DNA from: Flavobacteriaceae bacterium
GTDB taxonomy: Bacteria; Bacteroidota; Bacteroidia; Flavobacteriales; Flavobacteriaceae
Reading direction: 5' to 3'
Assembly (NCBI GenBank): GCA_038124405.1
Contig: JAYPBW010000002.1
Location: forward strand, 2,185 to 35,093
DNA length: 32,909 bases
Below, in pieces: positions 46-32,102 of the stretch. Position numbers and translations under genes: made by a program. Below the pieces are notes generated by a model, which saw nothing but the letters and a program-made list of their open reading frames with translations, was not told the DNA's origin and made no database searches. Each line of letters opens with the position of its first letter. Within the stretch, counting starts at the first letter, position 1.

Positions 46-819
46 TTAATCCAGAATGGAAAATTGTCGGCTGCTGGGATCAAATTGAACGACATTGCTG
101 TCAAATAATTCGGCAATTACTCCCGAATCTGTTAGCTGATCTGGTGTGCCCGTGATCACATGGCCCGGAGTTACACAGATGATGTTATCCGCCATTTTTA
201 ATGCCATTGAAATGTCGTGGGTGGAAAAAATTACGCCTTTATTGTGTTGTTTTGAAAGGTTTTTTAGCAGCATCACGGTTTGGGCTTTATGGGCTAAATC
301 TAAATGCGTGGTGGGCTCGTCTAAAAGAATAAAGGCAGTGTCTTGAGCCAGTGCTCTTGCGATAGAAACCCTTTGACGCTGTCCATCACTCAGCATTCCG
401 CATTTTTGATCCATCAAGGAATCGAGTTGCGTGGCTTTTATGGCTCGGGTGATGATCTGCTGATCTGCAGCGTTTATTTTTCCCAGCCAGTTCGTGTAAG
501 GGAATCGACCGAGTTCAACAAATTCCCGCACACTTAAATGATCGGAGTATTCTTTTTTTGTCAAAACAATGGCCAGTAGTTTTGCTCTTTGTGATGGGGT
601 CAGATTTTTAAATGAATGCCCCAACAAACTGATGGAACCATCCAGTGGGCTCAACTGTCCTGCCAAAGTATTAAGCAGGGTCGACTTACCAGCGCCATTG
701 GGTCCAATGATGGCGGTCAGCTGATTTTGACCAATACTGAAATTAACCCGATCGGCTAAAATATTCTTTTGCCCTCGGTCACTCAGATACCCTATGGTTA
801 AATTTTCAACGTTTAGCAC
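46..819 (-). CDS. ABC transporter ATP-binding protein, iron-chelate/cobalamin (FecE/BtuD-like) type
   Basis: Walker A GPNGAGKST, ABC signature LSDGQRQR and Walker B ILLDEPTTHLD are present. The GTG start lies 3 nt after the stop of the upstream permease gene. Confidence 0.9.
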   Translation of the reverse strand: MLNVENLTIGYLSDRGQKNILADRVNFSIGQNQLTAIIGPNGAGKSTLLNTLAGQLSPLDGSISLLGHSFKNLTPSQRAKLLAIVLTKKEYSDHLSVREFVELGRFPYTNWLGKINAADQQIITRAIKATQLDSLMDQKCGMLSDGQRQRVSIARALAQDTAFILLDEPTTHLDLAHKAQTVMLLKNLSKQHNKGVIFSTHDISMALKMADNIICVTPGHVITGTPDQLTDSGVIAELFDSNVVQFDPSSRQFSILD

Positions 820-822
820 GAC

Positions 823-1854
823 TCAAAACATTAGGTTTTTCTTTTTTATTAAAATCCAAATGACCACAGGTGCTCCTAAAATTGATGTAACTGCATTAAT
901 CGGTAAAGTAAGCGCGCTAAATGGAATCTGGGAAACAGCATCGCACAGCAGCATAATGATGCTTCCCCACAAAAAACTGGCAGGCACCATAATTCTATGA
1001 TCAGGGGTCCGTATGATTTGACGGACCAAATGGGGCACCGCCAACCCTACAAAAGCAATGGGACCCGCAAATGCTGTAATGCCGCCGGCCAAAACACTTG
1101 TGGAAAGAACAATCAATAAGGTGCTTTGTTTAACAGAAACACCCAGGCTAGCCGCATAGCCAGGACCCAAGAGCATGGCGTTCATCACTTTAATGCCGCG
1201 AATGGCTAAAATTAGCCCTAAAAGGCAACAGAACAACAAAATCAAAATACCCGTCCAGCTCAAATGACCTAAACCGCCAAAGGACCAAAAAATAAATCTT
1301 TGTAAGGCCTCTGCACGGCTGAAGTAGCTCAACACGCTCACAACAGCACCAGTAAGGCTGCCGAACATAAGCCCTATGATTAACAAGGTCATGGGGTCTT
1401 TAATCTTATTTGCAGCACCTACAACGGCCAATAAGACCAAAAAACTTCCTCCAGCTGAAGCCAGTACCATGGCCCATGGACCAGTCAACACGCTAGCACT
1501 CAAACCGGTAATTAGGCCTGACCCAAGAACTAAAAAAGCCACCCCTAGGCTTGCGCCGCTGCTAATCCCCAAGACAAATGGTCCGGCCAGCGGATTGCGA
1601 AAGAGCGTCTGCATGAGTAATCCTGACACAGACAAACCACCACCTACTAAAATGGCAGTTGTTGCCTTTGGTATGCGATAGTCGTTTACAATGAATAGCC
1701 AGGATTCTTCAAGAGGGTAATCCGTAAATAGACCGCTGAGGATCGATCCAAAAGGGATGTAAACCGAGCCCAAGCTCAGATTGACCAAAAATGCTAACGG
1801 CAATAAAATCAACGGCCACAGTAATTTAGACTTAAGGTAGGTCTTAGCATTCAC
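823..1854 (-). CDS. FecCD/BtuC-family ABC transporter permease
   Basis: 343-aa polytopic membrane protein with the typical FecCD layout and Gly-rich helices. It sits between the binding protein and the ATPase. Its GTG start overlaps the TGA stop of the upstream gene (GTGA). Confidence 0.88.
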   Translation of the reverse strand: MNAKTYLKSKLLWPLILLPLAFLVNLSLGSVYIPFGSILSGLFTDYPLEESWLFIVNDYRIPKATTAILVGGGLSVSGLLMQTLFRNPLAGPFVLGISSGASLGVAFLVLGSGLITGLSASVLTGPWAMVLASAGGSFLVLLAVVGAANKIKDPMTLLIIGLMFGSLTGAVVSVLSYFSRAEALQRFIFWSFGGLGHLSWTGILILLFCCLLGLILAIRGIKVMNAMLLGPGYAASLGVSVKQSTLLIVLSTSVLAGGITAFAGPIAFVGLAVPHLVRQIIRTPDHRIMVPASFLWGSIIMLLCDAVSQIPFSALTLPINAVTSILGAPVVIWILIKKKNLMF

Positions 1855-2990
1855 GGTTCAAGTGGTTTAAAAAAGTTGGTCTCATACCCTTGTTCCATGA
1901 GCTCAGGGTGTAAGATGCTGATAAGATCTGATAGAACCCAATCTGGACGCATCGCCGCTAACTCATAGTATAAAAGCCCCCCTGTCGGACCTTTGGTTTT
2001 GCTAAAGGTATAAATCTCTTTGCGTTTAAAGGGAGGAAATTCAGCATAAACAGGACTGCTTTGGGTCATTTGATTGTAGGAGGTGAATTGACCGGGTCCG
2101 ATCCAGAACTGGGCAGTCTGAGCAAGGCTCAAAATTTGCTCGATGTTCCATTGAAGGCTTCCTGTACCTTGGGTTGATTTCCAGATGTAGTCGCCGTTGG
2201 CGTCTTCAATGAATTTGGCGGCCCAACTGTTTCCTTTGGGAGCGTACCAGACATCCTTATACAAGGCTCCGCTAATGACTTTAGGCTGCGTTTTAGCCCC
2301 TGCAGCCACATCTTTTAACTTAACGTATTCAGACTCGATCTGCCGAAATATGGAGTCCGCCTTGTGTTTTTGATTGAAAAGGGCGCCAAAAACTTTAATC
2401 CATTCGGCCTTGCCCAGCGGATGTTGCTCGGTCCAGTCTCCATTATAAATGATTGGAATTCCGGCATCACTAACTTTATCTAAGCCATTCTGGGTTTGGT
2501 CAATGGCAAAGGTCATTAGAAGGTCAGGACGTCTTTGAATGAGCAACTCAATATTCAAGGATTCATTTTGCCCCAGCTCCTGGACTAATCCGTCATTAAT
2601 GCGCCCTCGCGTGGCAAGAGAGGAGATGTAATCGAGATTGGGAAAGCCCACCAGTGCGTCAGTCTTACCCAGCATCTCCAGGGCTGGTATATGGGTGGTG
2701 GATGTCGCTACGATGGTCTCTATAGGCACCTCAATGATTTGATCAAACCCTTCTGTATGAAACTCTTTTGTGTTTTTTGATACCAAAGCAATTCGATGAA
2801 GCGTAGACCCGTTTTGGGGATCGCGCAACTCCAGAATTTGAATGCTGTCGCGGTCCATTAAATAAAATCCTTTGGCATAATGTGCCTGGTCGTCTGCATT
2901 CAATTGTAGTGTTTCACTCGACGGTACCTCACCACATGAGGACAGCGCGATAAAACACCAGATCACACTCAAAAAATAGCTCAATCGCAT
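1851..2990 (-). CDS. ABC transporter periplasmic substrate-binding lipoprotein (BtuF/FhuD-like, cobalamin/iron-chelate class)
   Basis: Lipoprotein signal MRLSYFLSVIWCFIALSSCG. It is the first gene of the binding protein-permease-ATPase operon. I prefer the ATG at 2990; the ORF track uses an in-frame TTG at 2996. Confidence 0.8.
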   Translation of the reverse strand: MRLSYFLSVIWCFIALSSCGEVPSSETLQLNADDQAHYAKGFYLMDRDSIQILELRDPQNGSTLHRIALVSKNTKEFHTEGFDQIIEVPIETIVATSTTHIPALEMLGKTDALVGFPNLDYISSLATRGRINDGLVQELGQNESLNIELLIQRRPDLLMTFAIDQTQNGLDKVSDAGIPIIYNGDWTEQHPLGKAEWIKVFGALFNQKHKADSIFRQIESEYVKLKDVAAGAKTQPKVISGALYKDVWYAPKGNSWAAKFIEDANGDYIWKSTQGTGSLQWNIEQILSLAQTAQFWIGPGQFTSYNQMTQSSPVYAEFPPFKRKEIYTFSKTKGPTGGLLYYELAAMRPDWVLSDLISILHPELMEQGYETNFFKPLEP

Positions 2991-2993
2991 GAT

Positions 2994-3001
2994 CAAAAAT
3001 A
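2994..3001 (-). promoter_or_regulatory. Candidate Bacteroidota -7 promoter box (TATTTTTG) for the btuFCD-like operon
   Basis: The minus strand reads TATTTTTG-ATC-ATG, matching the TAnnTTTG consensus described for Bacteroidetes sigma-A promoters. It lies only 3 nt from the ATG at 2990. Confidence 0.4.
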
Positions 3002-3035
3002 ACAGAAATAATACGGTCGGTGGGCAGTTTTACTG

Positions 3036-3043
3036 TATTTTTG
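3036..3043 (+). promoter_or_regulatory. Candidate -7 promoter box (TATTTTTG) driving the cobalamin riboswitch / btuB transcript
   Basis: Exact TAnnTTTG match. The predicted transcription start, about 5-7 nt downstream, coincides with the first base of riboswitch helix P1 (3049). Confidence 0.5.
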
Positions 3044-3048
3044 GATTG

Positions 3049-3217
3049 TCTTTGGTTTTTTTCAATCATTGAGAGAATTAAAAGGGAATTTGGTGCAATT
3101 CCAGAACTGTTCCCGCAACTGTAAGCCGTCCTTGTAAAAGGGCCGTCACATACTTCAACCACTGTGCTTGTCATGGGAAGGGTGGCGTAACGGGTAAGTC
3201 AGGAGACCTGCCAAAGA
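3049..3217 (+). promoter_or_regulatory. Cobalamin (adenosylcobalamin/B12) riboswitch aptamer
   Basis: Closing helix P1 pairs TCTTTGG (3049-3055) with CCAAAGA (3211-3217). Conserved core strings are present: AAAAGGGAA, GGTGCAATTCC, CTGTTCCCGCAACTGTAA, CCACTG...GGGAAGG, and the B12 box AGTCAGGAGACCTGCC (3198-3213). It lies directly upstream of a TonB-dependent receptor gene. Confidence 0.9.
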
Positions 3218-3318
3218 ATAACAAACGTCCAACTTTCGGGATAAAGGTTTGGGGGTAAGGATCTGGCTTTAAAGCCCAGACTCGTGCATCCATATTGTTC
3301 CGATCAACACGATTGATC

Positions 3319-5289
3319 ATGATTAAACCAAAGAGCGTTGTGCTCGTTTTGGCTACTTTTACTGGCCTTGCTTCAGGTGCTTTAGCTCAAAATTTAAATG
3401 ATTCCTCCAAGCAGAATGATTCTTTAATGACCAAAAGAGACTCGCTGAGTACGGTTCATTTGACCACTAAAATTTTGTCCAAAGGGACTACCTCTTCAGA
3501 TCGTATAATTTCAATCGACCAACAGGTTCTCAAGTCATTTGCTGGTCAATCTTTAGCTTCAGTACTCAATCAAATTGGTGGCATCGAGGTAAACGGAGCC
3601 ACCGGTCATCCCGGTCAAAACTCAGGGCTTTACGTGCGGGGAGGAAATAACCGACAAGTCCTGCTTATGATCGATGGGGCCGTAGTCAATGACCCCTCAA
3701 GCATTGCCACTGATTTTGATTTACGACTTTTAGCCATCAATCAAATTGAGTCTATAGATGTGATTAAAGGTCCGTCCAGTGTGCTTTATGGCTCTGGAGC
3801 AGCTACAGCGGTTATTTACATCAAAACTAAGGCACATAAAGACCAAGGTATCTCGGTGAATTTGGAGCAAGTCTTGGGCACCAATCGAGGGCCTAATGAT
3901 GATCCATTGTCGGGTATTTCAAGGCACTCTATGCTACGGGTCGCTGCGCGACAGGGTGCATGGGTCTTTCAGGCTCAAGCTTCAGGAAGATTCACTGATG
4001 GTCTCTCTGCTGTCACTGCTCAAGATGGGGAAGCTGCGTTAAACCCCGATGAGTTTTCACAAACCAACGGTCGCTTCCTCATTAAATATAACCCTAGTGA
4101 AAAATGGTCCATGGAGCAATTCGTGGCCTACGATTTTATTCGTCAAGATTATGATCGATTTGATTACCGTGATGCGCCTTTTCAAAGCACGTCTACCCTC
4201 TGGCGCACCGGCGGGAGTTTTTACTATAACGGAAGGAGCTCCAAGTATGAATTTCACGATCAGTGGTCTCAAACCGAAAGAGTAATCAATAGTGATTTTC
4301 CAGCCGTATACAAAGGATTAAACTACAATGCAGATCAATTCATAACCACTAAATGGAGCGATCAACTCGGGACGGTCATTGGGACTCAGGGCGGTTGGTC
4401 CGCTATGGATTTGGCCCAGGCTTTTGGTCCAAACCTTCCTTTGAGCACCTCGCTAAGACCGGCAGATAGTCGCGTCTATTTTCTGGACCCTTATTTGAAT
4501 ACCCAATGGAACTGGAAAGAACAGTGGCAGATTGATGCCGGATTCCGTTGGCATCACCATCAGACCTATGGAAATCAATTGGTTTATCAATTGGGTGGAA
4601 GTTATGCTTGGAAAAGTGCTCAAAGTCAATGGGAGATTTTTGCCAAGCACGGTACATCATTCATTGCGCCATCACTTTATCAGCAATTTGACCCCATTTA
4701 CGGCAACACCGACTTGTTGCCAGAATTTAATCGCACCAATGAATTTGGAGTCGAATGGCGTTTTTCTGGTCAAAAAATATCGATACAATATTTTGATCGT
4801 CTTGAGGAACAAGCGGTATCGTTTCTGTTGATCGATCCTGAACAATTTGTTTATCAGTACGCCAATAACGAATCCTTGCAGAAAAGAAGAGGGTTGGAGG
4901 CCGGTGTCATTCTAAAAATGAGCCAGCAGGCTAATTTAACAGGGCACTATACCTACATTCACTCTCCTGATAACGATCTCTTGCGCATACCACCCCACAA
5001 ATTCAACATTAATGCCAATTACACCCTAAGTACTGAGGAATCCATCGGGATCCGTTGGACCTGGTCCGATGCCAGAATGGATCAATTTTTTAATGCCAAT
5101 ACTTTTGAAACGGAGTCGGTCTCCTTGCCGTCCTACCATTGGTTAGAGGGCGTTTATCAATGCCAGTTGTCTCCCAATATGAGCGGGGTTTTAGCCATTA
5201 CAAATCTGTTGAATCAAAGCGCAATTCCAATTTACGGTTATGCATCTCAGGGAAGAAATGTCAGATTATCGCTCCGTTGGGATTTTTGA
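3319..5289 (+). CDS. btuB: TonB-dependent outer-membrane receptor, BtuB-like (vitamin B12/cobalamin transporter)
   Basis: Signal peptide MIKPKSVVLVLATFTGLASGALAQ, plug-domain motifs (IEVNGATGHPGQ, YVRGG, IDGAVVND, IDVIKGPSSVLYGSGA) and a C-terminal ...LRWDF with terminal Phe. It is controlled by the cobalamin riboswitch. I prefer the ATG at 3319; the ORF track starts at TTG 3295. Confidence 0.85.
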   Translation: MIKPKSVVLVLATFTGLASGALAQNLNDSSKQNDSLMTKRDSLSTVHLTTKILSKGTTSSDRIISIDQQVLKSFAGQSLASVLNQIGGIEVNGATGHPGQNSGLYVRGGNNRQVLLMIDGAVVNDPSSIATDFDLRLLAINQIESIDVIKGPSSVLYGSGAATAVIYIKTKAHKDQGISVNLEQVLGTNRGPNDDPLSGISRHSMLRVAARQGAWVFQAQASGRFTDGLSAVTAQDGEAALNPDEFSQTNGRFLIKYNPSEKWSMEQFVAYDFIRQDYDRFDYRDAPFQSTSTLWRTGGSFYYNGRSSKYEFHDQWSQTERVINSDFPAVYKGLNYNADQFITTKWSDQLGTVIGTQGGWSAMDLAQAFGPNLPLSTSLRPADSRVYFLDPYLNTQWNWKEQWQIDAGFRWHHHQTYGNQLVYQLGGSYAWKSAQSQWEIFAKHGTSFIAPSLYQQFDPIYGNTDLLPEFNRTNEFGVEWRFSGQKISIQYFDRLEEQAVSFLLIDPEQFVYQYANNESLQKRRGLEAGVILKMSQQANLTGHYTYIHSPDNDLLRIPPHKFNINANYTLSTEESIGIRWTWSDARMDQFFNANTFETESVSLPSYHWLEGVYQCQLSPNMSGVLAITNLLNQSAIPIYGYASQGRNVRLSLRWDF

Positions 5290-9538: not shown

Positions 9539-10039
9539 CTACTCAACAATTCCAGCGCAACTAACACGTGCTCCAGCAGCTCCAGAGGGTTGTGAAACAA
9601 AATCGTCCGCACCTTGATGCACAATGATGGCTTTACCTAAAATGTTTTTTGTTTCATCATCACATCCTATACACCATTCATCGGTTTCAAAATAAACACG
9701 GCCAATTCCGTCAACTCCAACTTCAAAATTTCCGATATCCCCTTTGTGATATCCTTTGCTATTGCCCCATGCGCCGTGCGGCTTAAAAGTAGGGTTCCAA
9801 TGCCCACCTGTTGAAGTACCATCATCTGAAGAGCAGTCTGCTTTTTCGTGAAGGTGAATAGCGTGTGTCCCTTCCGACAAACCCCGTATGGTTACACTCA
9901 GTTGAACCCTTCCATTTTTTTCAGTTAACAAGGCAAAACCTGTTGCTTCAGAACCACTTTTTGGGTTTAATCCAATTTCTAATTGACTATGTTGACAACT
10001 GCAAAAGCCAATAACGAGTAAGAACACAATTTTTTTCAT
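9539..10039 (-). CDS. sodC: Superoxide dismutase [Cu-Zn], lipoprotein
   Basis: Lipobox VIGFCSC and the metal-ligand blocks HAIHLHEKADC, GGHWNP, GDIGN and IIVHQGADD. Confidence 0.93.
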   Translation of the reverse strand: MKKIVFLLVIGFCSCQHSQLEIGLNPKSGSEATGFALLTEKNGRVQLSVTIRGLSEGTHAIHLHEKADCSSDDGTSTGGHWNPTFKPHGAWGNSKGYHKGDIGNFEVGVDGIGRVYFETDEWCIGCDDETKNILGKAIIVHQGADDFVSQPSGAAGARVSCAGIVE

Positions 10040-18789: not shown

Positions 18790-19496
18790 GATTTAATTGT
18801 ATGAAGTCCACATTCTTTTTTACTAGATTCCCACCACCAACGACCGGCACGAATGTCTTCACCTTCCGTGATGGGTCGTGTACATGGGGCACAACCAATA
18901 CTCACAAATCCTTTTTTATGTAGTGTGTTTTGTGGTACATTATGTGATGTTAGGTAACGTTCCACATCTTGCAAAGTCCAACGTAGAAGAGGGTTAAATT
19001 TTATAATATTAAACGTAGTATCAAAACTGAAATAGTCCAACCCTGCTCTATTTTGAGATTGATTACTTCGTAAACCAGTTACCCATACATCCTTGTTCGC
19101 AAGTGCTCGTTTTAAGGGGTCAATTTTTCTAATGTTGCAACATTCTTTACGGTTTTCTACAGATTCATAAAAGCTGTTTGGTCCTTTGGTTGTCACCAAC
19201 TCCTCTACGACGCTGTTATCAGGCGCATAGACTCGGATACTGTTCTTAAACTTTTTTTGCGTAAGCTCAAGGACATCATAGGTTTCTTGAAATAATCTCC
19301 CAGTGTCTAATGTGAATATTTCTACAGGTAATTCGTTGGTAGCAATATGGTGTGTGATTACTTGATCTTCTTGACCTAAGGAGGTTGAGAAGGTTATCCT
19401 TCCAAGTTCTTGATTGAGTAGGAATTTGAAAAGGCCTCCAATTGTATCAATTGATTGCGCATTATTATTTAACGCATCTACTTTTAATTGACTCAT
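18786..19496 (-). CDS. cysH: Adenylylsulfate (APS)/phosphoadenylylsulfate reductase, thioredoxin-dependent, Fe-S (APS reductase) type
   Basis: C-terminal catalytic ECGLH, plus the cluster cysteines RKECCNIRK and GCAPCT (CC...CxxC). I prefer the ATG at 19496, which overlaps the upstream TGA stop (ATGA). The ORF track starts at 19523. Confidence 0.88.
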   Translation of the reverse strand: MSQLKVDALNNNAQSIDTIGGLFKFLLNQELGRITFSTSLGQEDQVITHHIATNELPVEIFTLDTGRLFQETYDVLELTQKKFKNSIRVYAPDNSVVEELVTTKGPNSFYESVENRKECCNIRKIDPLKRALANKDVWVTGLRSNQSQNRAGLDYFSFDTTFNIIKFNPLLRWTLQDVERYLTSHNVPQNTLHKKGFVSIGCAPCTRPITEGEDIRAGRWWWESSKKECGLHTIKS

Positions 19497-19747
19497 TTTC
19501 TGCCCCATTTTACAGTATTCCAAACACGTTCATGAACGACATACAAAACCATTTTTGTAACCAATTCAATTCCACCAATAGAAAGCGCAAAAGCTAGTTT
19601 CCCTGTAATGATATAGGAAATAAGGATGGTGTCTAGCGTTCCTATAATACGCCAGCTAATAGATTTAAGTATCGATCTAGACCAGCCTTCACTTTGAGTG
19701 CTTTCCTTTCTTTTTTTAGAGTTAAGTATAAGTTGATCTACAATCAT
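19493..19747 (-). CDS. DUF2061-like small membrane protein, first gene of the sulfate assimilation operon
   Basis: The string KSISWRIIGTLDTILISYIITG...IELVTKMVLYVVHERVW has a two-helix pattern resembling DUF2061. I prefer the internal ATG at 19747. The longer ORF to 19837 would run through the divergent promoter and into the rrf2 start. Confidence 0.6.
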   Translation of the reverse strand: MIVDQLILNSKKRKESTQSEGWSRSILKSISWRIIGTLDTILISYIITGKLAFALSIGGIELVTKMVLYVVHERVWNTVKWGRK

Positions 19748-19763
19748 CGATATTAATTCGGGG

Positions 19764-19771
19764 CAAATATA
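19764..19771 (-). promoter_or_regulatory. Candidate -7 promoter box (TATATTTG) of the sulfate assimilation operon
   Basis: Exact TAnnTTTG match on the minus strand, 16 nt upstream of the ATG at 19747. Confidence 0.45.
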
Positions 19772-19778
19772 ATAAATA

Positions 19779-19793
19779 CTATCAAATTGATAG
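19779..19793. promoter_or_regulatory. Perfect 15-bp palindrome CTATCAAATTGATAG, candidate Rrf2 operator shared by two divergent promoters
   Basis: The 7-nt arms CTATCAA / TTGATAG flank a central A. With one mismatch it extends to a 21-bp near-palindrome (ATaCTATCAAATTGATAGgAT). It lies between the two candidate -7 boxes at 19764-19771 (-) and 19816-19823 (+). Confidence 0.5.
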
Positions 19794-19815
19794 GATATAT
19801 AGATTATATTTTTTT

Positions 19816-19823
19816 TAAATTTG
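19816..19823 (+). promoter_or_regulatory. Candidate -7 promoter box (TAAATTTG) of the rrf2 operon
   Basis: Exact TAnnTTTG match with its G 5 nt upstream of the A of the rrf2 ATG (19828). This implies a leaderless or near-leaderless mRNA. Confidence 0.4.
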
Positions 19824-19827
19824 AAAT

Positions 19828-20238
19828 ATGATATCAAATAAATGTAAATACGCTATAAAGGCATTAGTTTATATTGCGAAGTATGATAATGGTTCCAAGG
19901 CAGTTATGACTTCTGATATTGCTAGAGAGCAAAATATACCTCGAAAATTTTTAGAGATTATTCTTCGCGACTTAAGGAATAACCGCATATTGGAGAGTAA
20001 AAGGGGTAAAGACGGCGGCTTCAGACTGCTCCGCCCAGCAGAAGATATAAGTTTGACCGAAATTATGCGAATCATAGACGGGCCTATTGCCATGCTGCCC
20101 TGCGTTTCACTGAATTATTATCGTTCATGTGATGAATGTGAAGAAGAAAGCTGTGAAATTAAGGGGGTTTTCGAACAAGTCCGAGACAGAACGCTAGAAG
20201 TACTTAACGGTAAAACAATTAAATCCTTAACTTTGTAA
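19828..20238 (+). CDS. Rrf2-family transcriptional regulator with a four-cysteine cluster (IscR/NsrR-like, not CymR-like)
   Basis: N-terminal Rrf2 winged helix (KCKYAIKALVYIA...IPRKFLEIILRDLRNNRILESKRGKDGGFRL). Cysteines sit at 92, 101, 104 and 109 (PCVSLNYYRSCDECEEESC). Confidence 0.88.
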   Translation: MISNKCKYAIKALVYIAKYDNGSKAVMTSDIAREQNIPRKFLEIILRDLRNNRILESKRGKDGGFRLLRPAEDISLTEIMRIIDGPIAMLPCVSLNYYRSCDECEEESCEIKGVFEQVRDRTLEVLNGKTIKSLTL

Positions 20239-20633
20239 TGTTAATGAGAAAATTAGGCGCTTTATTACTAGGTGTGTTTATGTTGCTGCTTTCTGTGAAA
20301 AGCAACATAGGAATGCATTTTTGTCATGGCACCTTAGTAGAAGCTTCTATAAATGAGTCGCTTTCTAGTTGTTGTACTAAAACAACGCATACCAATCAAC
20401 CTACACTGAATAGACAATGTTGTGAGATTGCTCATTTTACTGCGGAACTTACAGAAACAGTTCTTACAGGTAATGACGTTGAATTTCACGATTGTCCATC
20501 TCTCATTCTTGAAGATTCATTTGTATTTCATTTTATAAAAACAGTTCCTGAGCTTCAAACATTTGACTTTGAGTCTCCCCCCGAACCGTCTCACATTTCG
20601 TTACATATTTTATTTGAGCAATACTTGATTTGA
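20238..20633 (+). CDS. Cys/His-rich small membrane-anchored or secreted protein of unknown function (possibly HYC_CC_PP-like family)
   Basis: N-terminal hydrophobic segment LGALLLGVFMLLLSV, then HFCHG, SSCC, RQCCE and HDCP, with a PPEP near the C-terminus. Its ATG overlaps the rrf2 TAA stop (TAATG). Confidence 0.6.
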   Translation: MLMRKLGALLLGVFMLLLSVKSNIGMHFCHGTLVEASINESLSSCCTKTTHTNQPTLNRQCCEIAHFTAELTETVLTGNDVEFHDCPSLILEDSFVFHFIKTVPELQTFDFESPPEPSHISLHILFEQYLI

Positions 20634-20682
20634 TTAGCAAACTACCTCCGCTTAGTTTGTTTAATTCATTAAATCATATATC

Positions 20683-22914
20683 ATGTTCAAATCTTATTTA
20701 AATCTAATATTTAGTATATTCAGTTGTGCCCTTTTTGCACAACAGCACCTTGTTACTGGATACGTCTATGAACAAGGAGACACTTCTCAATCACCACTTG
20801 TTGGCGCAAGTGTGTATTGGGAAAATTCATCTGTTGGTACGGTCACCAATGATGAAGGCTATTTTTCAATCACTCATAAACCCGAACATAACGTTTTGGT
20901 GATTTCTTATTTGGGTTTCAAAACCGAAACACGCTCAACTGTATTTAATCAGCCCATTAAAATAGTGTTGGAACCAGATGACGCCTCTTCTCTAAATGAA
21001 GTGACTGTTTCGCAAAAGCGAAAATCCTTGCAACGCGCTATTTTTTCGCCACGAAATGTCACAACCATTGGCAGCGATGAATTATTAAAAGCAGCTTGTT
21101 GTAACCTTTCTGAAAGTTTTGAAACAAACCCTTCTATTGATGTAAATTATGCCGATGCCCTTACAGGAACTAAGCAAATACAAATGTTAGGGCTTACGAG
21201 TCCCTATATATTATTTACGCAAGAGAATATCCCTAGTTTGCGTGGTAGTAATCAAACCTTTGGATTAACATTTACACCTGGGACTTGGGTTGAAAGCATT
21301 CAAATTACTAAGGGTGCTGGAACGGTAACTAGTGGTTATGAGAGTATTTCGGGTCAAATTAACACAGAGTTGATTAAGCCCCAAACGGCACCACCGCTTT
21401 TTGTTAACGGATTCCAATCTGTAAATGGGCGCTCTGAATTAAATATTCAGGCAAAGCATGAGTTTTCAGACAAATGGGCTACAACGCTTTTTTTGCATGG
21501 AAATCAGCGCGTAAAAAAGACAGACCAAAACAAAGATGGGTTTTTGGATATGCCACTTTCTAATCAAATTAATGTGCTGAATCGTTGGCAATATATCAAT
21601 CCAGATAAAGGATGGGTAGGTTTTTTAAACATTGGCTATGTAACAGATGAAAAACAAGTTGGTCAATTGGATTTTGACCCAAAAAAGCATCGTTTTGGAA
21701 ATTCAGTTTGGGGTGGAGAACTTAAAACAGACAAGTTTAATTTTTCTTTAAAGACAGGGTATGTTTCTCCAGAAATCCCTTACAGAAGTTTAGGGTTTCA
21801 ATCTGCTGTAAGCTACCACAACCAAGAAGGATATTTTGGAGGAAACACTTATGATGTTTCTTATACTAGTTATTTCCATCACCTAGTGTATCAATCTATT
21901 TTGGGGAATACGCTACACAAATTCAAAACAGGCATACAGTATATGGCTGATGTTTACGATGAAACTATTCTTAGTACAGAAATCCATAGAAATGAAACCA
22001 ATTTGGGAGGTTTTTTTGAGTATAGTTATGACGCTCAAGAAAACTTTAATCTAATTCTTGGTCTCCGATTTGATCATCATAACACCCTAGGTAATTTTAT
22101 TACACCTCGTGCTCATATTCGATACGCGATGTTTGATAATAAAACCATTTTACGACTTTCAGCAGGAGAAGGCAGACGGGTTTCAAGCATTTTTGCCGAA
22201 CACCAAAAATTCTTAGGCAGTCAACGTCAACTTCTGATTTCAAATCCAACAGCTCCTATTTATGGATTGCTTCCTGAGCGTGCTTGGAATTATGGTTTTA
22301 GCTGGATTCAAAAGTGGAATATTCCAAACCAACCTACAGAGTTTGGTATTGATGTGTATCGAACTTCGTTTACTAATCGAGTTGTTGTGGATTGGGAGAC
22401 ACCAGGAGAAATTTCCTTTTATAATTTGGATGGAAAAAGTTACGCACAGAGTATTCAGTTTTCGGCAAACACAAGCTTTAATCAGCGTGTTGATCTTCGC
22501 TTTGCCTACAAAGCATACGACATTAATACGACTTATAATTCGGGTGAAAAACGTATGCCACTACAGCCCAAAACACGTTGGTTTGCTTTTTTAGGGTATA
22601 ACACACAAATAGATTCTGGGAAACAATGGCGTGCTGATATTACAATGCACCGAGTAGGAGAACAACGATTAGTAGCGACTTCCGCATTACCCTCACGGCT
22701 AGCCAATGGATTTTCTTTGTTGAGTTCGCAGCTTACACGTCAATTTTCAGAAAAGCTATCGCTATATTTAGGTGCTGAAAATTTGTTGAATGTTAAGCAA
22801 TCAGATGCTATTCTTGGCGCAGCAGATCCTTTTGGCGCAAATTTTGATACGAGTCAAGTATATGCGCCTGTTTTTGGCAGAATGTTTTATGCAGGATTCC
22901 GCTTTAATTTATAA
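20683..22914 (+). CDS. TonB-dependent outer-membrane receptor with N-terminal carboxypeptidase-regulatory-like domain; substrate unknown
   Basis: Signal peptide, CarboxypepD_reg-like segment (VTGYVYEQGD...PLVGASVYWENSSVGTVTNDEGYFSI), plug-like region (IQMLGL...ITKGAGTVTSGYESISGQIN) and a long beta-barrel ending ...FYAGFRFNL. There is no SusD-like partner gene. Confidence 0.85.
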   Translation: MFKSYLNLIFSIFSCALFAQQHLVTGYVYEQGDTSQSPLVGASVYWENSSVGTVTNDEGYFSITHKPEHNVLVISYLGFKTETRSTVFNQPIKIVLEPDDASSLNEVTVSQKRKSLQRAIFSPRNVTTIGSDELLKAACCNLSESFETNPSIDVNYADALTGTKQIQMLGLTSPYILFTQENIPSLRGSNQTFGLTFTPGTWVESIQITKGAGTVTSGYESISGQINTELIKPQTAPPLFVNGFQSVNGRSELNIQAKHEFSDKWATTLFLHGNQRVKKTDQNKDGFLDMPLSNQINVLNRWQYINPDKGWVGFLNIGYVTDEKQVGQLDFDPKKHRFGNSVWGGELKTDKFNFSLKTGYVSPEIPYRSLGFQSAVSYHNQEGYFGGNTYDVSYTSYFHHLVYQSILGNTLHKFKTGIQYMADVYDETILSTEIHRNETNLGGFFEYSYDAQENFNLILGLRFDHHNTLGNFITPRAHIRYAMFDNKTILRLSAGEGRRVSSIFAEHQKFLGSQRQLLISNPTAPIYGLLPERAWNYGFSWIQKWNIPNQPTEFGIDVYRTSFTNRVVVDWETPGEISFYNLDGKSYAQSIQFSANTSFNQRVDLRFAYKAYDINTTYNSGEKRMPLQPKTRWFAFLGYNTQIDSGKQWRADITMHRVGEQRLVATSALPSRLANGFSLLSSQLTRQFSEKLSLYLGAENLLNVKQSDAILGAADPFGANFDTSQVYAPVFGRMFYAGFRFNL

Positions 22915-22925
22915 ATATTAATAAA

Positions 22926-23276
22926 ATGAGAATATCTATTATTTTGATGTTGTTTATGGCTACTTCTTTGGTTGCCCAAACAAAAAAAGAGACCCTTTCT
23001 GTACGTGGTAATTGTGGTATGTGTAAAGAGCGCATCGAAGCAGCAGCCTTAAAAACAAAAGGTGTGAAGTACGCTGTTTGGCAATCTAACAACGAACAGT
23101 TGCAACTTATCTACAATGCAAAAAAGACATCGGCTGAACAAGTAGCTAAAAATATTGCTGCAGTGGGGCATGAGGCTCATGGTATTGTTGCTGCAGATAG
23201 TATTTATACTACCTTACCTATGTGTTGTAAATACAGAGAAGGGAACCCACATGATAAGGGTTATACGGATAAATAG
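22926..23276 (+). CDS. Secreted heavy-metal-associated (HMA) domain protein
   Basis: Signal peptide MRISIILMLFMATSLVAQ, an HMA ferredoxin-like fold with metal site GNCGMCKERIE (CxxC), and an extra C-terminal LPMCCKYREGNPHD. It starts 11 nt after the TBDR stop. Confidence 0.82.
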   Translation: MRISIILMLFMATSLVAQTKKETLSVRGNCGMCKERIEAAALKTKGVKYAVWQSNNEQLQLIYNAKKTSAEQVAKNIAAVGHEAHGIVAADSIYTTLPMCCKYREGNPHDKGYTDK

Positions 23277-23319
23277 AACATTACTTTACTACGTATAATT
23301 TAGTGCGTTCGTAAACAAA

Positions 23320-23347
23320 AAACCCGCAACTCCTGTTGTGGGTTTTA
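23320..23347 (+). terminator. Rho-independent terminator of the rrf2-TBDR-HMA operon
   Basis: Stem ACCCGCAAC (23322-23330) pairs with GTTGTGGGT (23335-23343) including one G-U pair, around loop TCCT. A T-run follows. Confidence 0.7.
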
Positions 23348-23507: not shown

Positions 23508-23514
23508 CCTTTTG

Positions 23515-23599
23515 CGGAGAAAGAGGGATTCGAACCCCCGGAGGTGTGACCCTCAACGGTTTTCAAGACCGCCGCATTCGACCACTCTGCCATTTCTCC
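23515..23599 (-). tRNA. tRNA-Ser (anticodon UGA)
   Basis: The minus strand folds by hand into a cloverleaf: acceptor GGAGAAA/TTTCTCC, D stem GCA/TGC, anticodon stem GCGGT/ACCGT with loop CTTGAAA, long variable arm GAGG...CCTC, and T arm GGGGG-TTCGAAT-CCCTC. Length is 85 nt and no CCA is encoded. Confidence 0.93.
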
Positions 23600-29978: not shown

Positions 29979-32102
29979 TTAATTCAAATCAAATCGATCT
30001 GCATTCATAACTTTATTCCAAGCGGCAATAAAATCTTGAATAAATTTATTGTTATTGTCGTCTTGGGCATATACTTCTGCAATTGCTCTTAGTTCAGAAT
30101 TTGAACCAAACACCAAATCTGTTCTAGAAGCAGTGCGAGCTTTTTCACCAGTACTCCTTTGGAGTCCAACATAGGAATTGTAACCTGTAGTTTGCCACTT
30201 TATGTCCATAGACAAGAGCGTTTTGAACCAAGAGTTATTAAGCTTCCCATCGGTCCAAACCCCATCGCCAGAACGAGAAACTCCCATAGCACGCAATCCA
30301 CCTACCAAAACAGTCATTTCAACAGGATTAAGTCCAAGTAGTTGTGCTTTATCTAGCATAATTTCTTCAGGCGGAACAGCAAACTCTTTTTCTGAATAGT
30401 TTCTAAAACCACAAGCCTTAGGCTTAAGTAATTCGAAAGAGTCTATATCTGTTTTATCTTGAGTGGTGTCACCACGACCAGTAGTTACAATTACTTTTGT
30501 TCCGCTAGCCATTTCAATACCAACTGCTCCTCCTATTACAATTATGTCAGCAATACTTGCGCCTGTTTCTTTAGCGATTTGTTCATAAACTTCTAAAACG
30601 CTTTTAAGTTGTGAAGGATTGTTAACTTCCCAGCTTACTTGCGGTTCCAAACGAATTCTAGCACCATTAGCTCCACCACGATTATCGGAACCCCTAAAAG
30701 TTGACGCAGAGGCCCATGCGGTTTCGACTATTTGTTGATGTGTCAGCCCACTTTTAGCTATTGCACTTCGCACCGCTTTTTCTTCATCTTCAGAAAGGAC
30801 TTTACCTGGCGCAACAGGGTCTTGCCAAATGTATTCTACGTCCTTAAAGTCTCCTGCAACATAATTGCTTTTTGGTCCCATATCTCTGTGAAGAAGTTTG
30901 AACCAAGCACGAGCGAATGCCTCACCGAATGCCTCAGGATTTTCTAAGAAACGTTCACAAATTTTACGGTATTCTGGATCAACCTTCATAGACATATCAG
31001 CCGTTGTCATCATGGGAAGTACTTTTTCATCACTTCCATCAACTTGTGGTACCATGTCTTCTTCAGTACAATTGATTGGGTGCCATTGCCATGCCCCTGC
31101 AGGACTTTTTTTACATTCCCATTCGTATTTGAACAGCAAGGTTAAGTACCCCATATCCCATTGTATTGGGTTTGTTGTCCAGGGACCTTCTATACCACTC
31201 GTTATGGTATCTACACCCTTTCCTGATTTATGTGAACTCAACCATCCAAACCCTTGTGCTTCAATTGCTTCTCCTTCAGGCTCAGCACCTACATGAGCTT
31301 CGTCTCCAGCTCCGTGCGCTTTTCCAAACGTGTGACCACCCGCAGTTAGGGCAACAGTTTCCTCGTCATTCATTGCCATGCGCTTAAAGGTTTCCCTAAC
31401 ATCTTGTGCAGAAAGTGCTGGATCAGGGTTTGCGTTAGGTCCTTGTGGATTTACATAAATAAGCCCCATTTGAACAGCCGCAAGAGGGTTTTCTAAATCC
31501 TGACGAGTTTTACCGTAGCGATTATCACCTAGCCACTCGTCTTCAGCACCCCAATAGATGTCTTTTTCAGGATGCCAAATATCTTCTCTCCCTAAAGCTG
31601 TACCATGATTTGGCCCTCCCATGTCTTCAATGGCTACATTACCTGCAAGAACAAGTAAATCTGCCCAACTTAGATGATTCCCATATTTTTCTTTAACAGG
31701 CCAAAGGAGTCTTCGCGCTTTGTCTAGGTTTCCATTATCGGGCCACGAGTTAAGTGGTGCAAACCGCTGTGCCCCTGTGGCAGCTCCGCCACGACCATCT
31801 CCGGTGCGGTAAGTCCCGGCAGCATGCCAAGTCATACGAATAAAAAATGGACCGTAATGTCCATAATCTGCAGGCCACCAGTCTTGGCTGTCGCGTAAAA
31901 CGATTTTGATGTCATTTTTTACAGCTTTTAGATCAAGATTTTTAACTTCTTTTTTATAGTCGAAGCCCGCTAAAGGATTGCTCTTAGCATCGTGTTGACG
32001 TAAAATATCAAGATTAAGTTGGTTGGGCCACCAATCTTTGTTTTGTGTTCCAAGATTAGGTTGTGTCGTTGAACCGTGGAAAGGGCATTTACTTTCGCTC
32101 AT
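29979..32102 (-). CDS. katG: Catalase-peroxidase (HPI)
   Basis: Distal-site [13 protein letters not shown], proximal-His block [12 protein letters not shown] and C-terminal ...[14 protein letters not shown]. The two-domain length of 707 aa fits. Confidence 0.95.

Follow-up and report, generated by a model that had tools for sequence, protein, structure and literature searches.

A conserved envelope gene trio with invariant vicinal cysteine pairs in Flavobacteriaceae, a candidate for TonB-dependent soft-metal uptake

Three adjacent genes in a 32,909-nt stretch of DNA from a Flavobacteriaceae bacterium (assembly GCA_038124405.1, contig JAYPBW010000002.1; the whole stretch is hereafter called the window) constitute a conserved envelope module, which is almost certainly separate from the Rrf2-family regulator gene lying immediately upstream. 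The three genes encode a small protein of the DUF8199/HYC_CC_PP family, a TonB-dependent receptor (TBDR) and a secreted HMA-like protein, and each of these proteins bears an invariant vicinal Cys-Cys pair. An original prediction, made from the letters of the window, had joined the regulator and the three structural genes into one envelope operon for a thiophilic metal or a metal-sulfur compound. We find that the region divides instead into two units, one formed by rrf2 and its candidate operator at 19748-20238 and the other by the trio at 20228-23346, and we propose that the trio probably handles a soft metal.

Results

An open reading frame scan together with the sequence confirmed four co-directional genes, namely rrf2 (19828-20238, + strand), the small DUF8199/HYC_CC_PP gene (20244-20633, +; 129 amino acids from Met3, although the open reading frame may begin at 20238 to give 131 amino acids), the TBDR gene (20683-22914, +; 743 amino acids) and the secreted HMA-like gene (22926-23276, +; 116 amino acids). 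The predicted gaps of 49 nt before the receptor gene and 11 nt before the HMA-like gene were correct, and the motifs HFCHG, SSCC, RQCC, HDCP, CGMC and MCCKYR...H were all found in the proteins. A TAATG overlap between rrf2 and the small gene is present in the sequence but is probably incidental, as relatives of the small gene, 20 of 20, begin at the residue aligned with Met3, which is invariant, and the real start is therefore probably the ATG at 20244, 5 nt past the rrf2 stop. The trio is closed by an intrinsic-terminator-like hairpin at 23322-23346 (+), followed by the U-run UUUUAUUAU, which a simple terminator scan missed and folding detected; with a minimum free energy of −19.9 kcal/mol, a z score of −4.69 and none of 200 shuffles as good, it is as strong as had been predicted.

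The trio is widely conserved in marine Flavobacteriaceae. Searches with the receptor protein returned more than 8,000 homologues, with those of cultured Cellulophaga, Maribacter, Flagellimonas and others being ~53% identical, and a plug-peptide scan of one genome per species with the patterns ELLKAACC and FETNP[AS]ID, the signature of the receptor plug, recovered at least 589 species genomes with a confirmed receptor. The best 80 species-level loci of these at least 589, all Flavobacteriaceae-like, were surveyed with hidden Markov models built for the purpose, and the full trio was present in 71, the receptor with the HMA-like gene only in 6, and the receptor with the DUF8199 gene only in 3. 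Conservation outside the source genome, as followed through the gene neighbourhoods, thus holds widely for the trio, and for the four genes only within the clade of the window. The DUF8199 family itself comprised 397 clusters at 50% identity (E ≤ 1e-3) in a representative library. A distant sub-branch of DUF8199 proteins ending in ...FLFYG, 26-34% identical, served as the query against metagenome contigs, where the DUF8199 gene was followed by an HMA-like gene in 8 of 9 loci and the receptor gene stood third in all 7 contigs that were long enough, giving the order DUF8199-HMA-TBDR, unlike that of the window. The distant receptors (loci L095-L102) keep the plug CC motif, KAACCNLSESFETNPSVDV, and the cysteines of the HMA-like proteins are also kept. 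That the gene set is kept through rearrangement strongly argues that the trio is a functional unit.

Together with the invariant residues described below, these results bear out the prediction of a real conserved envelope module whose thiolate ligands are its invariant positions. No characterised counterpart was found in the literature searched, in which neither HYC_CC_PP nor DUF8199 nor the TBDR/HMA gene set is described; a paper on Riemerella ZntR lists many TBDRs, none of which could be mapped to this receptor family, and a paper on copper in Bizionia names a different, OprC-like TBDR.

By contrast, the regulator does not belong to the module. Rrf2 is adjacent to the trio in only 4 of the 80 loci, all of them in the clade of the window, and is absent from the other 76, which speaks against both its membership and its proposed control of the trio. 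In Cellulophaga algicola, Flagellimonas meishanensis and a Psychroserpens metagenome-assembled genome (MAG), the trio is flanked by purH, mreB and a gene for a GAF-domain protein at one end and by groEL at the other end, and there is no Rrf2 gene. Within the clade of the window, Rrf2 proteins are 88-92% identical and DUF8199 proteins 42-57%, indicating that the two are under different constraints. Moreover, in L001-L003 a deletion extending from within cobA to within rrf2 has removed the cys operon and most of rrf2, with the trio kept; cobA is cut to 115 amino acids and fused to the last ~30 codons of rrf2 (L001 6541-7001, and likewise in L002 and L003), the scar upstream of the trio retains a −7 promoter box, and the ferredoxin and siroheme genes are also kept.

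Two side observations concern these loci. The free-standing 150-amino-acid GAF-domain protein (L008 5815-6267) is the divergent neighbour of the trio in 64 of 90 loci and presumably resembles free methionine-R-sulfoxide reductases, its position next to the trio probably being synteny only. L002 (GCA_002703155.1, PAEY01000018.1; P0012, P0024) comes from a MAG labelled Gammaproteobacteria, yet the gene order of its contig matches that of the flavobacterial window throughout (SodC, DUF3089, trio, TauE, ribBA, LptF), and the label is probably a binning or taxonomy error.

The −7 box TAACTTTG (20228-20235, +), which matches the consensus TAnnTTTG and is the predicted trio promoter, lies in the final rrf2 codons (S-L-T-L) at −16 from the ATG at 20244, and the distance is equal in L001-L005, L011 and L012. 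Of 85 loci, 69 have the consensus 10-18 nt before the DUF8199 start; with the search interval anchored on the HxC codon, the count was 74 of the 85, compared with 5.1 ± 2.2 for shuffled sequences. Rrf2 orthologues without a downstream trio have a different ending and no −7 box. The three genes thus most likely form a transcription unit of their own with a near-leaderless mRNA, and the control region that the trio was thought to have in common with the cys operon gives way to a box of its own just upstream of the small gene. Apart from this box, no strongly conserved regulator site emerged from the upstream motif search. In loci of the Maribacter, Muricauda and Arenibacter types (L016-L038, L054, L057 and others), an AT-rich dyad (for example CTAAAATTTAG) with GTTAA after it recurs ~40 nt before the −7 box. 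This dyad is a possible regulator site, and the clade of the window, in which rrf2 coding sequence takes its place, does not have it.

The regulator belongs to a different neighbourhood. Upstream of rrf2, the minus strand carries genes for DUF2061, cysH, cysD, cysN, sulfite reductase, cobA, siroheme synthase, a ferredoxin-NADP-reductase-like protein and ferredoxin. The mechanically called DUF2061 reading frame (19493-19837, −; 114 amino acids, TTG start) overlaps rrf2, but the orthologues have 84-92 amino acids, so that its true start is the ATG at 19747, which leaves a divergent control region of 80 bp. This region contains a perfect 15-bp palindrome, CTATCAAATTGATAG (19779-19793), which is kept in all loci of the window clade, with related palindromes in L091-L093, and which is a candidate Rrf2 operator between two promoters, assigned to the sulfate-assimilation unit and not to the trio. 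It also contains a −7 box of the Bacteroidetes type, TAAATTTG (19816-19823, +), 4 nt upstream of the rrf2 ATG, which implies a leaderless or near-leaderless rrf2 mRNA; TAnnTTTG is conserved at the same position before rrf2 in L004, L006 and L011-L014. Three Rrf2 orthologues (82, 65 and 64% identity; L091, L092 and L093) are likewise divergent to DUF2061-cysH-cysDN-sir, with no trio downstream, and L093 otherwise shares the gene order of the window (Rrf2, TauE, ribBA, LptF), minus the three genes.

The protein is a clear Rrf2 family member (PF02082, 114.6 bits versus a cutoff of 30; TIGR00738, 110.7 versus 73.3) with the motif C-x9-C-x2-C-x4-C, which is conserved in its subfamily, whereas its scores against the IscR, CymR, NsrR and RirA equivalogs were all 45-66 bits and missed cutoffs of 182-275. 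From this gene context, the subfamily is likely to be a regulator of sulfate assimilation in Flavobacteriaceae and possibly senses Fe-S; a description of an Rrf2 subfamily tied to sulfate assimilation in Bacteroidetes was not found in the literature searched. An unassigned Rrf2 subfamily with a defined palindrome as its candidate operator, likely regulating sulfate assimilation, is a separate outcome of the analysis, and the metal-sulfur compound proposed as a substrate of the trio, which rested on the cys neighbourhood, loses its basis, since that neighbourhood is specific to this lineage.

The small protein was assigned to DUF8199 by its score against NCBIfam NF047658 (HYC_CC_PP) and by the Pfam labels precomputed on its homologues, all of which carry PF26622. 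The protein of the window is a divergent member (32.1 bits versus a cutoff of 28), the Cellulophaga orthologue reaching 105.5 bits. After an N-terminal hydrophobic segment, the motifs H-x-C, C-C and P-P follow in register at residues 27-29, 61-62 and 114-115. In an alignment of 81 sequences, H27-x-C29, C61 and C62 do not vary, 79 sequences have C45, and P114-P115 and a C-terminal hydrophobic ...LI (...YLI in the window) are nearly invariant; HDCP and the second Cys of SSCC show no conservation. With 15 residues only, the N-terminal segment is less likely to anchor the protein in a membrane than to be a signal peptide that is cleaved off.

The receptor carries a signal peptide, an N-terminal CarboxypepD_reg-like domain (20752-21009, +; CarbopepD_reg_2, 56.7 bits), a TonB-box-like stretch LNEVTVSQ of the expected position and pattern (residues 104-111; 20992-21015, +), in which E106 is invariant in an alignment of 72 sequences, and an atypical Plug (residues 122-224; 21046-21354, +). 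The Plug match is weak (PF07715, 31.1 bits versus a cutoff of 23.9) because AACCNLSESFETNP stands where plugs usually have an LRR.PGV stretch. The plug signature ELLKAACCNLSESFETNPSID (21079-21141, +) contains the vicinal pair C139-C140 (21097-21102), which is invariant in the 72 aligned homologues and provides the sole cysteines of the mature receptor; the distant-branch receptors have 2-3 cysteines in total. PF00593 is precomputed on many receptor homologues, and the protein of the window missed an E of 0.01 in the Pfam scan. An AlphaFold2 model gave the N-terminal domain and a 22-strand barrel at a predicted local distance difference test (pLDDT) score of 70-89; in the plug region (residues 101-230) the pLDDT is ~24, although no other part of the receptor is as well conserved.

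A Foldseek comparison of the model returned TBDR crystal structures (E 5e-21, TM ~0.5, 10-14% identity), none of them specifically close, in the order PirA, PfeA, FepA, BtuB and then OprC and ZnuD, while sequence and profile searches of the PDB retrieved only the N-terminal domain and weak barrel segments, and not OprC. Sequence, profile and Foldseek comparisons therefore place the receptor outside any cluster of known substrate. The downstream gene encodes the HMA-like protein, and the receptor has no SusD partner, as predicted. A SusC/RagA assignment was rejected, as TIGR04056 matched the N-terminal domain only (67.3 bits versus 368.25) and there is no adjacent SusD-like gene; a siderophore-receptor assignment was also considered and rejected.

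An alignment of 65 residues that takes in the C-x-x-C loop relates the secreted HMA-like protein to solved HMA domains of CopA and CopZ (E 1.6e-4 to 7e-3), HMA domains of Zn ATPases also being among its PDB matches. Its two cysteine sites are the loop C30-G-M-C33 (23013-23024, +) and the C-terminal tail C100-C101-x-Y103 (23223-23234, +). Among 84 sequences, C30, C33, G81, H82 and Q18 are invariant, Y94, C100 and C101 are found in 83, M32 in 81 and Y103 in 80. The signal peptide ends ...LVA|Q, and the invariant Gln18 that follows it fits the "Q-rule" of the Bacteroidetes signal peptidase. The original prediction described HMA chaperones as classically cytoplasmic and knew of no characterised TBDR system with a periplasmic HMA protein; a periplasmic HMA protein as such has a precedent in MerP.

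Accessory genes in the relatives point to heavy metals. The window has no P-type ATPase gene next to the trio, and to this extent the original prediction holds, but relatives insert a P1B-1 ATPase or an HMA-MauE protein into the cassette. The HMA-MauE protein, present in 24 of the 80 cassettes, has 236 amino acids and combines a cytoplasmic GMTCxxC HMA domain (40.7 bits) with a MauE/DoxX-type four-helix membrane domain; it is exemplified by L009 10624-11334 and is a candidate inner-membrane partner. In 10 of the 80 cassettes, a P-type ATPase of 830 amino acids occupies the same positions and has a near-identical N-terminus, and all ten ATPases bear the P1B-1 (Cu+/Ag+) signature CPC, YNx4P and Mx2SS (TIGR01511, 579 bits versus 397). 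Three of the 80 loci encode a secreted protein with two HMA domains, the second of which has the same GHD...CC-x-Y tail as the HMA-like protein and matches MerTP at 50 bits. These Maribacter-type loci (L017 1168-3413, L024 and L042) add three genes between DUF8199 and the receptor, encoding a 256-amino-acid outer-membrane-like protein without a family match, the two-HMA protein and an NHL-repeat beta-propeller lipoprotein. Annotatable insertions in the cassettes of relatives are all heavy-metal genes, and one locus adjoins both an RND/CusB-like efflux cluster and the gene of an AraC regulator whose N-terminus is HMA-like. Clustering of the neighbouring genes yielded only housekeeping and HMA-type families as recurrent ones, with no MerA-, ars- or Zn-ATPase-like family, although none of these was specifically searched for; the window contains no MerA or ars gene.

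Elsewhere in the window, a BtuB-like TBDR gene (3295-5289) has a cobalamin riboswitch (3036-3229, 108 bits) in front of it. Divergent from it, a btuFCD-like ABC importer (46-2996, −) consists of an ATPase, a FecCD permease and a periplasmic binding protein, and 46-5289 is an ordinary B12 uptake locus. The window also encodes SodC (9539-10039, −), a periplasmic Cu/Zn superoxide dismutase and potential client for periplasmic copper, and a KatG-like catalase-peroxidase (29979-32102, −), and tRNA-Ser(tga) (23514-23599, −) lies downstream of the trio on the opposite strand. PADLOC gave no matches on the window, and the trio is accordingly not a defence system.

Discussion

Taking these observations together, we favour, on balance, an account of two units in which the trio takes up a soft metal, most likely copper, by means of thiolate ligands. 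That it handles a soft metal of some kind is probable, while the version in which TonB-powered uptake and thiolate hand-off serve copper specifically is plausible and put forward tentatively. The receptor would spend TonB energy on moving a thiophilic metal, most likely Cu(I) or Cu(II), across the outer membrane, with the plug Cys-Cys pair as a metal ligand. The metal would then be handed by thiolate exchange to the HMA-like chaperone and the DUF8199 protein, both presumably periplasmic and with their cysteines presumably reduced, and these two proteins may supply periplasm-facing cuproenzymes such as cytochrome oxidases and SodC. That the trio comes without an inner-membrane importer would be explained by this, since such cuproenzymes do not require one. 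Where the accessory genes are present, the two proteins may supply the inner-membrane HMA-MauE protein or work beside the CopA-type ATPase. We are more doubtful of a thiolate relay spanning the full envelope, which would presumably run from the plug Cys-Cys pair to the HMA-like protein, then to DUF8199 and finally to cuproenzymes or HMA-MauE, and which has no characterised equivalent.

Several observations weigh against this account. Cys-based ligands are unusual in the oxidising periplasm. The HMA-like protein falls just short of the PF00403 gathering threshold (23.4 bits versus 24.8) and misses the cutoffs of MerP (TIGR02052, 23 versus 92.55), CopZ (NF033795, 26.8 versus 91) and MerTP (24.9 versus 180). 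The AlphaFold2 model of the DUF8199 protein, built on a 21-sequence alignment, had a pLDDT of 43.9 with the N-terminal helix alone predicted, and a plug pLDDT of ~24 leaves the Cys-Cys pair without a reliable position in the receptor model. Among solved structures the receptor has no specific relative, and it lacks the CxxxM-HxM copper site of OprC, having no C...M or H.M motif. The P1B-1 ATPase is of the exporter type, is present in only 10 of the 80 cassettes and could be a generic marker of a "metal island" rather than a partner. Nor is the trio always complete, as five loci with a receptor subclade marked by VSQRKKSSQLSFL... (L026, L052, L085, L089 and L019) have no DUF8199 gene within 2.5 kb upstream, and two Polaribacter MAGs (L075 and L077), checked by eye, lack the HMA-like gene; the partners are therefore either not strictly obligatory or encoded elsewhere. 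Finally, with the rrf2 stop 5 nt from the small gene, read-through from rrf2 is possible in the lineage of the window.

It is unlikely that the trio handles a soft metal or metalloid other than copper, for example Hg(II), Ag(I), Cd(II), Zn(II) or As(III), perhaps in order to sequester or detoxify it, although vicinal Cys pairs are typical of Hg(II) and As(III) handling, as in MerT, the MerA C-terminus and ArsD, the HMA-like protein matches MerP, MerTP and CopZ equally weakly, and both the MerTP match of the two-HMA protein and the Zn-ATPase domains among the PDB matches fit such a metal. The linked ATPases, however, carry the Cu(I)/Ag(I) P1B-1 signature and not that of Zn/Cd P1B-2, and the MerA and ars genes that detoxification might bring with it are missing from the window and did not recur in the neighbour clustering, which was not aimed at them. 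Furthermore, energised import of a purely toxic metal, encoded at a housekeeping position in streamlined genomes, would make little physiological sense.

Import of an organic ligand, either a metallophore or a thiol or sulfur compound, with cysteines that are redox-active or structural and MauE/DoxX-type partners that give redox equivalents, appears quite improbable to us. Most TBDRs do import chelates rather than free ions, MauE and DoxX are linked to disulfide/thiol redox chemistry (by the Pfam description as well), and an HMA score under threshold, with neither small protein nor the plug amenable to modelling, leaves room for such a role. Yet the HMA-like fold aligns to CopA and CopZ over the metal-binding loop, the MauE partner itself has a canonical GMTCxxC HMA domain and sits where Cu(I) ATPases with near-identical N-termini sit, canonical HMA domains occur in every accessory gene, and no metallophore biosynthesis or ABC-type periplasmic binding genes are linked to the trio loci. 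A single four-gene operon under Rrf2 control, importing either a metal-sulfur compound or a metal connected with sulfur and Fe-S metabolism, in coordination with sulfate assimilation by way of a common control region, is highly improbable, because the co-directional genes, their spacing of just 5 nt (or TAATG overlap), the retention of the rrf2-trio arrangement in the clade of the window (L004-L007, L011-L014), a four-Cys motif compatible with Fe-S sensing and physically possible read-through from the rrf2 promoter are set against the rarity of Rrf2 adjacency, the occurrence of the cys operon with Rrf2 orthologues but no trio and of the trio and its box without cys operon and rrf2, the usual position of the trio between GAF gene, purH, mreB and groEL, and the unequal constraint on Rrf2 and DUF8199.

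Flavobacteriaceae are major degraders of marine organic matter, in habitats where free copper is extremely scarce. The trio occurs in hundreds of their species and is kept even in streamlined genomes without sulfate assimilation. A Caulobacter study of 2025 notes that no dedicated import system was known for aa3 oxidases (PMC12617631). Under the copper-uptake account, the trio would be a concrete candidate for the outer-membrane copper step that loads oxidases and other periplasmic cuproenzymes, and, if this is true, two groups known by name only, DUF8199/HYC_CC_PP and the HMA-MauE fusion, would gain a function.

Among known systems, MerP-MerT resembles the proposed hand-off in that a Sec-secreted CxxC HMA protein passes a soft metal by thiolate exchange to a vicinal-Cys membrane protein. 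The trio differs in having no MerT, MerA or MerR, in its energised TBDR step at the outer membrane and in its housekeeping position rather than one on a mobile resistance element; a reading as a mer operon was rejected on the missed MerP and MerTP cutoffs and the absence of MerT, MerA and MerR. CopZ-CopA has the HMA fold with a CxxC loop that the HMA-like protein resembles, and 10 of the 80 relatives have a P1B-1 ATPase gene physically linked to the trio, but the HMA-like protein of the window has a signal peptide and a CC-x-Y tail, and there is no ATPase in the window.

At the outer membrane, a precedent for TBDR-mediated copper uptake is OprC (PMC11213822). Like the receptor described here, OprC/NosA of Pseudomonas is TonB-dependent, has a 22-strand barrel and a Cys-containing site and is proposed to take up ionic copper, and OprC matched the receptor model at an E of ~1e-17, a TM of ~0.52 and 13-14% identity, ranking 24th or lower among the Foldseek matches. 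The two are unrelated in sequence apart from sharing this fold. Unlike OprC, the receptor has a CarboxypepD_reg-like domain, a deviant Cys-Cys plug and other gene partners. TBDRs that feed copper to oxidases, and operons joining a TBDR to periplasmic chaperones, are represented by Caulobacter TccA and Bradyrhizobium PcuABCDE (PMC12617631). These systems resemble the account proposed for the trio in combining a TBDR with periplasmic copper chaperones for cuproenzymes, with no need for an inner-membrane importer (PMC12617631); they differ in that they are alphaproteobacterial, use a PCuAC-type chaperone (PcuC/PccA) and have no DUF8199 protein, and the site predicted for TccA is His/His. The NF047658 and PF26622 families are catalogued by name only, with no function assigned to them. 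What is already known, therefore, is the TBDR, HMA and DUF8199/HYC_CC_PP families as catalogue entries and TonB-dependent metal uptake with a periplasmic chaperone; what is new is the combination of partners, the deviant Cys-Cys plug, the Cys-Cys theme that runs across the three proteins and the breadth of their conservation.

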